Source: Chlamydiia bacterium
GTDB lineage: Bacteria; Chlamydiota; Chlamydiia; Chlamydiales; Rhabdochlamydiaceae
Assembly: GCA_963804085.1 (NCBI GenBank)
Contig: CAWDOQ010000019.1
Coordinates: 288,001 to 352,000, forward strand
Direction: 5' to 3'
DNA length: 64,000 nucleotides
A model generated the notes under the pieces. It did no database searches. It saw only the letters and a list, made by a program, of their open reading frames with translations, and was not told the origin of the DNA. How positions within the stretch are numbered: position 1 is the first letter of the stretch; the number at the start of each line of letters is the position of its first letter. Shown one piece after another: positions 55,602 through 56,057 of the stretch. The position numbers were made by a program, and so were the translations under genes.

Positions 55602-56007
55602 TCAGATGTCTCCCAAGTCTCCTGATACGTGCCCGCGCGCGTGCCCGTGCCCGTGCCCGAATCTTCTCTTTTGTGCCATCTTGATTAACATAGAGACAAT
55701 TCTCAATAATAAGTTTTCGTCCCTCGTTGTATTGGTTCTCTTCAATCGATTGTAGACTTTTGCAGACATCCAGGATTCCAGCAGACTCTGTTGCAGAACG
55801 CTTTGCCATGCGATAAAATCTGCATTTTTCATTGATTGAAAATTCACCAGCCCCTTCGGCAATATTCAAAGGAATCGAAGAGCTGGCGCGTTGCAACTGA
55901 TCAGCCAAATAATTTTTGCCTCTGGGCATATGTTCTATAATTTGACCTGACAAAACAACAAATTCGATAGCTGTCTTATAAACATCGAGCTTTTCATGAT
56001 CAAACAT
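55602..56007 (-). CDS. Four-helix-bundle protein (23S rRNA IVS / TIGR02436-like), with an apparent frameshift near 55715
   Basis: MFDHEKLDVY, LADQLQRASSSIPLNIAEGAG, FYRMAKRSATE; expected last helix LLLRIVSMLIKM is in the adjacent frame; GGAG RBS. Confidence 0.85.
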
Positions 56008-56057
56008 TATATCTCCAAAAAATTCGGGCACGGGCACGGGCACGCACACGGGCACGT
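55627..56057. repeat. 36-bp GGGCAC-family inverted repeats bracketing the four-helix-bundle gene
   Basis: Arms 55627-55662 and 56022-56057, 2 mismatches. Confidence 0.93.

Follow-up and report, generated by a model that had tools for sequence, protein, structure and literature searches.

A four-helix-bundle gene enclosed by inverted hexamer arrays

The window (the whole stretch of DNA analysed, 64,000 nucleotides, corresponding to C19:288001-352000 of genome G000, a 2.13-Mb assembly of 24 contigs that is 91% complete) contains a 431-bp unit at 55627-56057 in which a small gene lies between two inverted arrays of short repeats. The unit is set between a pknD-like Ser/Thr kinase gene (52822-55599, minus strand; Pkinase, E 1.2e-44), which follows immediately downstream, and the divergent trpS gene (56126-57127, plus strand). 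Read on the plus strand, the left arm (55627-55665) is a C-rich array of GTGCCC-type hexamers with the inner end CCCGAAT, and the right arm (56019-56057) is a G-rich array of GGGCAC-type hexamers; the former forms the 3' side of the enclosed minus-strand gene and the latter its 5' side in the transcript. An inverted-repeat search gave 39 nt for each arm, 92% complementarity and 353 nt between them, close enough to the 36-bp arms with two mismatches that the first-pass annotation had placed around a helix-bundle gene to confirm them. The window contains 10 occurrences of the double hexamer GTGCCCGTGCCCG, with at most one mismatch, where 0.02 would be expected. In the predicted RNA fold, the arms pair as a 41-bp stem enclosing the whole ORF and its ribosome-binding site, with an energy of -182.3 kcal/mol compared with -131.4 kcal/mol for shuffled sequences (z -8.35). 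The direct repeat at the flanks of the window copy is 3 nt long and could be due to chance.

The enclosed gene (55663-56010, minus strand) is a 348-nt ORF whose ATG at 56010 is preceded by GGAG. Its assignment to the four-helix-bundle (4HB) family PF05635/TIGR02436 was borne out by matches above the cut-offs of both models (PF05635, E 2.4e-22, 79.6 bits, cut-off 33.8; TIGR02436, E 2.3e-19, 69.6 bits, cut-off 24). Across Pfam and NCBIfam the protein matches only 4HB models, namely these and two PRK12275-type models; families of nucleases or recombinases are not among the matches. Of solved structures, that of homopentameric XCC0516 (PDB 2GSC, E 3.4e-8) is the closest. The cores of 4HB proteins are near neutral (pI 5.7-9.4), with no sign of a strongly basic nucleic-acid binder.

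Contig C7 (14.5 kb) duplicates window 51640-57937, including pknD, the 4HB gene and trpS, at 98.4% identity over 6.3 kb and differs beyond this segment; it probably represents a second strain in the bin (contamination 4.97%). Relative to C7, the window copy of the 4HB gene has one extra base near 55711, where it is frame-shifted, and an A-run that is 2 nt shorter, and a contig of a related strain (run X1) differs from the window copy by the same two indels. These changes put the last 4HB helix out of frame in the window, where the ORF continues in frame into pknD (1109-aa ORF, 52822-56151). Because both indels, at about 55711 and 55664, sit in homopolymer runs, they may reflect assembly error instead of decay. 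On C7, the intact 4HB ORF passes through the 3' arm and ends on the pknD start codon. C7 has unbroken versions of both 4HB genes of the window; the second, of a "suffix-domain" type (58253-58552, plus strand), is frame-shifted in the window and sits between two direct copies of an ACGGAC-rich palindrome of about 205 nt (57961-58167 and 58773-58978; about six copies in the genome). Between trpS and this palindrome, positions 57199-57878 hold a DUF5674 gene (E 5.8e-32) and an adjoining 107-aa ORF without a Pfam or NCBIfam match.

Given its location between the pknD start and the divergent trpS, the cassette probably lies within the pknD leader. The divergent pair is retained at 14 of 29 relatives' loci, where the spacer measures 25-240 nt in 12 cases and is longer in the remaining two (805 and 1396 nt); the cassette is absent from all the spacers listed for relatives that keep the pair. 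Compared with these cassette-free relatives, which are too diverged to align for exact junctions, the 527-nt spacer of the window represents an insertion in this lineage. The DNA contigs of four sequencing runs contain no empty pknD-trpS allele. A single joint ("skips 370") was rejected as such an allele: one of its sides is only 26 nt long, and it contains the loop sequence of the gene-less copies described below, which marks it as a different genomic palindrome that maps to the arms.

Gene-less palindromes share polarity and inner junctions with the cassette

G000 contains 154 arrays of at least two GYGCCY units. Among adjacent arm pairs, the C-rich arm comes first in 40 (a count that includes the 4HB-bearing pairs and a few doubly counted or widely spaced ones) and the G-rich arm in none, a polarity that is independent of the strand read. 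Short gene-less copies have a common loop core, ATCCGGATTAAT, and ACG.GCC termini are found in 37 palindromes, 34 of them gene-less; as in MITEs, terminal inverted repeats are thus common to a multi-copy family. TA borders many of the gene-less copies, although their flanking sequence is palindromic as well.

Four gene-less palindromes of the window had been described in the first-pass annotation as equivalents of the cassette arms in the same CCCGA...TCGGG orientation. These inner ends are indeed common to all four, but only the palindrome at 33551 (33552-33616; loop core ATCCGGATTAAT) is of the GYGCC hexamer type found at the 4HB gene. The palindromes at 10881 (10882-10966), 31761 (31765-31854) and 40795 (40796-40905, end approximate) belong to a second arm family (GCGCCCGCTTCC...) with the same loop core and inner ends, and the arm of the last is almost the same as those enclosing the 4HB gene at G000:C10:17646. 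A solo arm noted near 38813 is real: a G-rich arm lies at 38815-38848, preceded by a purine-rich AGAAGAT junction, and another solo G-rich arm lies at 47455-47488.

PF05635 matches six places in G000, comprising three full-length loci (the window locus, C10:17646 and C10:160339), the strain duplicate of the first on C7 and two suffix-domain copies. The arms of the three full-length loci differ (GTGCCC, GTGCCT/CTGCCT and GCGCCCGCTTCC), each pair being complementary across its gene, and each arm type recurs as gene-less palindromes in G000. The proposal that "filled" and "empty" elements form one system is therefore supported by the polarity and inner junctions common to 4HB arms and gene-less palindromes, by the correspondence of each of the three 4HB paralogues with the arm type of one gene-less family, by the joint occurrence of abundant repeats and the gene in related genomes, and by a complete deletion series linking gene-bearing and gene-less elements in another genome (G041, see below). 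Gene-less copies far outnumber 4HB genes. No 4HB remnants were found in the other G000 palindromes, so that an origin of gene-less copies by deletion is shown in G041 only.

Some palindromes of G000 have other contents or neighbours. At G000:C16:15555-15897, the same hexamer arms surround an unrelated 61-aa ORF (faint histone-fold hint, PF00808, E 0.07), and separate hexamer palindromes flank an MFS transporter gene. A second hairpin with GACGC/GAGAC-rich arms is nested in the palindrome loops at C8:30680-30996, C19:195783-196090 and C19:235123-235685.

Mobility genes in G000 were searched for in the whole genome. PF13359, PF13358 and PF00078 have no match, PF01609 matches on C14 and at C19:209670, and PF01797 matches on C17; none of the five families falls inside the window, in agreement with the first-pass view that it is free of transposase and reverse transcriptase. 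Relatives of six transposases found inside such arms in other genomes (see below) were not found in the assembly, which is 91% complete and may, as is frequent for multi-copy elements, miss some of them. An IS4-like element is present in two copies, with ends unrelated to the arms. The single Y1 (IS200/RAYT-type) gene (C17:57812-58264) is flanked by inverted repeats of about 100 nt (C17:57700-58365) that differ from the hexamer arms and occur at about five loci, and the Y1 locus looks like a separate small REPIN-like system. Neither rnc, encoding RNase III, nor radA, its neighbour in a relative, was found in the 91%-complete genome, which suggests that the rnc locus is probably unassembled.

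Repeats and the 4HB gene occur together within the family

Of 40 related genomes, 11 have a PF05635 match of E 0.001 or better, and in 7 the match exceeds the family cut-off. A lack of arms at close homologues had been named in advance as evidence against a link between gene and repeat; all five intact close homologues in other genera (L001-L004 and L006) are bracketed by hexamer arms, each cassette lying between different neighbouring genes, and a sixth homologue, a pseudogene, keeps the downstream array only. In two of the five (G013 and G005), the polarity is the opposite, with the G-rich arm first. Short palindromes are C-rich-first in G000 (9) and G024 (8), with none G-rich-first; the one short palindrome found in G005 is G-rich-first and has the same inner junction as the G-rich-first arms around the 4HB gene of that genome.

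The abundance of the repeat follows the presence of the gene. Across 25 genomes of the family including G000, which are mutually related so that the count is not a statistical test, a strong 4HB match was found in six of the seven genomes with at least 10 double hexamers, the exception being only 58% complete, and in one of the 18 genomes with fewer than 10, where the match is a pseudogene. The expected co-occurrence of repeat and gene is thus observed in these related genomes. Two loci of the family have further features. In L001 (G013:C6), the 4HB cassette lies directly after rnc and before radA; in L004 (G001:C73), the 4HB gene has three tandem arm units to its left and three to its right, an arrangement in which alternative, nested stems could form.

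Arms around 4HB genes in at least eight phyla

A scan of one genome per species yielded at least 527 relatives, of which the best 80 loci were analysed; these belong to Chlamydiota, Legionellales and other Gammaproteobacteria, Verrucomicrobiota, Planctomycetota, Acidobacteriota, Myxococcota/"Deltaproteobacteria" and Lentisphaerota. When flanks of 300 nt (upstream) and 250 nt (downstream) of the gene were considered, a bracket score of at least 14 was reached at 32 of the 72 loci with both flanks, compared with two of 139 shifted controls. With 1.5-kb flanks and near-duplicates removed, arms were found at 45 of 67 relatives among these best 80 of 527, in at least eight phyla. In the 45 armed loci listed, the upstream arm is C-rich in 35, G-rich in 6 and neither in 4, and the loop is shorter than 700 nt in 36 and at least 700 nt in 9; at 13 of them the ORF extends into the 3' arm. 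The arm units are NNKCCC hexamers or, in Legionellales, NNNACG-like units. No 4HB relative was detected at E 1e-8 in a plasmid collection, and no rRNA lies beside the 4HB gene at 20 loci without arms. At one arm-less locus (L088), the 4HB gene is followed, at a distance of about 140 nt, by a group II intron (RF02001, 120 bits).

The expectation that the repeat motif tracks the protein phylogeny is borne out only weakly. On the protein tree, the motif requires 25 changes compared with a mean of 28.1 after shuffling, a value reached in one of 300 shuffles, which indicates a weak but non-random clustering; close relatives, however, often differ in motif, and the tree, built from a narrow clade, is poorly resolved, with 5 of 44 inner branches starred. 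It leaves out 17 near-duplicate loci, loci with an arm score below 18 and L048, which has a non-hexamer inverted repeat, and L057 is unlabelled. Two general readings of the arrays were set aside: formation of G-quadruplexes by (GGGNNN)n, because the Legionellales-type arms of NNNACG units are without G-runs, and a telomere-like role of the arm polarity, because no reverse transcriptase (PF00078) was found in G000.

Transposases inside the arms

In an environmental Chlamydiae MAG (G041), elements with a common terminal repeat, consisting of a 25-nt unique end followed by hexamers and present at 114 ends, form a graded series. The longest, of about 1.4 kb (a 1.43-kb IS), encode a 304-aa transposase with DDE_Tnp_4 and HTH_Tnp_4 domains whose gene overlaps the 4HB ORF by 50 nt; an autonomous partner with a transposase is thus present for the end type of this genome. 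Elements of about 1.1 kb carry a decayed transposase remnant and an intact 4HB gene (at least 17 loci, 95-98% identical), those of 0.5-0.6 kb carry the 4HB gene only, and those of 0.15-0.3 kb are gene-less hairpins that keep variable numbers of hexamers and in some cases hold 4HB remnants. The ends are flanked by TA on the left in 15 of 16 cases and on the right in 18 of 18. Among 16 copies, the 4HB gene shows 12 non-synonymous and 3 synonymous variants, a dN/dS of about 1.2 that is uninformative for young copies. Both full-length copies seen have a premature stop in the 4HB gene.

Arms enclosing a 4HB gene together with transposase genes of other families were found at further loci: a DDE_3/IS630-type transposase in L056, DDE_Tnp_1_3 in L089 and L093 (three copies in one MAG), DDE_Tnp_1_assoc with DDE_Tnp_1 (ISAs1-type) in L060, DUF4096 with DDE_Tnp_1 in L081, a DDE_Tnp_1_4 remnant in L077 and a weak DDE_5 remnant in L073. 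With G041 included, at least six DDE families (six or seven) occur inside such arms, and an inverted repeat around the transposase gene alone is absent in four of five cases tested. A simple picture of one IS family and its MITEs does not account for these DDE families, which are many and mostly without repeats of their own. L073 has a clear 7-bp target-site duplication, and the same 71-nt ends surround a 4HB gene only at L069 in the same MAG. In most cassettes that hold only the 4HB gene, no target-site duplication is detectable.

Discussion

We consider it fairly probable that the unit at 55627-56057 is a non-autonomous, MITE-like remnant of an IS-type element that has kept the 4HB gene and its inverted ends, and our data suggest that the gene-less palindromes of G000 are elements of the same kind without the gene. 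As a plausible history, the transposase gene would have been lost from an IS-type element, with the small accessory gene and the terminal inverted repeats retained. Movement would take place at the DNA level through the inverted ends, with a DDE transposase supplied in trans. The tandem hexamers would give the two ends a complementarity that tolerates register shifts, with the consequence that a read-through transcript would fold into a long stem, and it may be this stem that permits a location within operons, leaders and rRNA, as for the RNase III-cleaved intervening sequence (IVS) of 23S rRNA. The 4HB protein would then be the element's own accessory protein, and our preferred guess is that it binds the arrays or their stem. 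The lack in G000 of relatives of the six transposases and of 4HB remnants in other palindromes, the variety of DDE families inside such arms, the dN/dS near 1 among the G041 copies compared, the premature stops in the two full-length G041 copies, the near-neutral 4HB cores, the lack of a detectable target-site duplication in most 4HB-only cassettes and the hexamer arms around the unrelated 61-aa ORF of G000 count against this reading.

A cassette that works at the RNA level is an unlikely but substantial alternative. An RNase III cut in an IVS-like stem would free the 4HB mRNA from that of pknD, the 4HB protein would act on RNA, and the transposases inside the arms elsewhere would be secondary guests. 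The predicted 41-bp stem around the ORF and its ribosome-binding site is consistent with this idea and is the respect, an architectural one, in which the IVS-like, stem-bounded cassette proposed at first pass holds up. With no more than about 20 nt between the 5' arm and the ATG, there is scant space for a promoter within the loop, and the sole promoter-like match of the region lies on the opposite strand, so that both arms are likely to be transcribed. The passage of the ORF through the 3' arm at 13 of the 45 loci listed, with its end on the start of the next gene in C7 and L002, resembles translational coupling, and the lack of target-site duplications in most 4HB-only cassettes points the same way. 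Gene-bearing 23S IVSs of the same build are cut by RNase III (PMC4990558). Conversely, an RNA-level cassette leaves its arrival at new sites unexplained, whereas G041 shows DNA transposition of units with the same arms; rnc was also not found in G000, where its locus is probably unassembled.

Two further alternatives concern the origin of the arms and the role of the protein. In one, which we regard as improbable, REP-like palindromes of independent origin are resident in the genome, and 4HB or other genes insert preferentially into hairpin loops, the arms thus being those of the target. The variation of the arms by locus, their match to the palindromes of the host in polarity and junctions and the nesting of other hairpin elements in the loops of some G000 palindromes agree with such a capture, as does the position of rRNA IVSs, which also sit at hairpin tips. 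However, the filled copy does not retain the whole loop sequence to the left and right of its gene, gene and arms move jointly as multi-copy units with identical ends (G041, CAVXEK and CAWAUF), and the package is found in eight phyla with very different background repeats. The other, in which the 4HB protein itself is the trans-acting factor that recognizes and mobilizes its cognate hexamer hairpins in the manner of a RAYT and its REPINs, had been put forward in the first-pass annotation and appears very improbable. It would account for 4HB being the only gene constantly inside the arms, for the pairing of three paralogues with three arm families in one genome, for the co-occurrence of repeats and gene across the family and for the weak but non-random association of motif and tree. 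Yet genuine DDE transposases occupy the same arms in other genomes, the Pfam and NCBIfam matches of the window 4HB protein are to 4HB models alone and include neither nucleases nor recombinases, gene-less copies are far more numerous than 4HB genes, the window copy is itself frame-shifted, and motifs often differ between close relatives. With the motif following the protein tree weakly and the Y1/RAYT gene of G000 flanked by a different, low-copy repeat, the analogy with 4HB as the mobilizing enzyme is not upheld.

The cassette resembles several known systems without full identity to any. The 23S rRNA IVSs of Coxiella burnetii and Leptospira, whose S23p ORF belongs to the same PF05635 family, are of similar size (about 0.4-0.5 kb). 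In the report on Coxiella (PMC4990558), the ORF lies in the loop of a stem of terminal inverted repeats, 28 bp in length and cut within by RNase III, with short tandem repeats, there heptamers, between stem and ORF; the same report mentions the long-standing suspicion that IVSs are mobile-element remnants. Terminal inverted repeats likewise enclose the ORF of the present cassette, as the predicted 41-bp stem. In contrast to an IVS, the cassette lies between pknD and trpS and not in a 23S rRNA gene (helix 25 or 45), and window 50000-64000 gave no Rfam match; the arms consist of hexamer arrays, gene-less copies are many, and relatives carry transposases inside the arms.

Likeness to IS/MITE families and to PIF/Harbinger elements is seen in the terminal inverted repeats and, in G041, in the multi-copy series of internal deletions with TA-flanked ends. 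PIF/Harbinger elements carry two genes, for a DDE_Tnp_4 transposase and for a DNA-binding partner that acts on subterminal repeats, and G041 likewise has a second small ORF beside its DDE_Tnp_4 transposase. Unlike the PIF/Harbinger partner, a Myb/HTH protein, the accessory protein here is an Avd-like helix bundle, and the same accessory gene and hexamer arrays accompany at least six DDE families; unlike typical IS/MITE pairs, most gene-only cassettes have no target-site duplication, and no autonomous partner was found in G000. With RAYT/REPIN systems the cassette shares dispersed intergenic palindromes and a single-copy gene flanked by the same repeat, but 4HB is not a Y1/HUH transposase, and the one Y1 gene of G000 is flanked by another repeat. 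PF05635 also resembles Avd, the accessory protein of diversity-generating retroelements, as stated in PMC10053308, and the 4HB protein has a homologous fold; in G000, however, no reverse transcriptase (PF00078) was found, and no pair of template and variable repeats was noticed. A literature search outside most subscription journals turned up no account of 4HB cassettes outside rRNA or of 4HB as an IS accessory gene.

A wider proposal, which we put forward tentatively and hold to be rather unlikely, is a portable end module made up of the 4HB gene with its two inverted hexamer arrays and independent of the transposase family, with stranded derivatives that include the IVSs. By binding to the array at either end, a multimeric 4HB protein would pair the two arrays, in the form of DNA or of an RNA stem; at least six families of DDE transposases would have taken up the module or been taken up by it, and gene-only cassettes in operons, gene-less palindromes and ORF-bearing rRNA IVSs would be its stranded derivatives.

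PF05635 is a large family of unknown function, and the origin of the gene-bearing 23S spacers has been open since the early 1990s. The gene-in-hairpin package described here lies between ordinary genes in many phyla and, in G041, is continuous with an insertion sequence on the one hand and with gene-less palindromes on the other, which makes the old idea of IVSs as mobile-element remnants testable at the bench. Within Chlamydiota, some of the REP-like intergenic palindromes may, as our data suggest, be MITEs of the 4HB-cassette kind. If the portable module exists, it would provide a first function beyond retroelements for the PF05635/Avd-like family and would account for the origin of rRNA IVSs.
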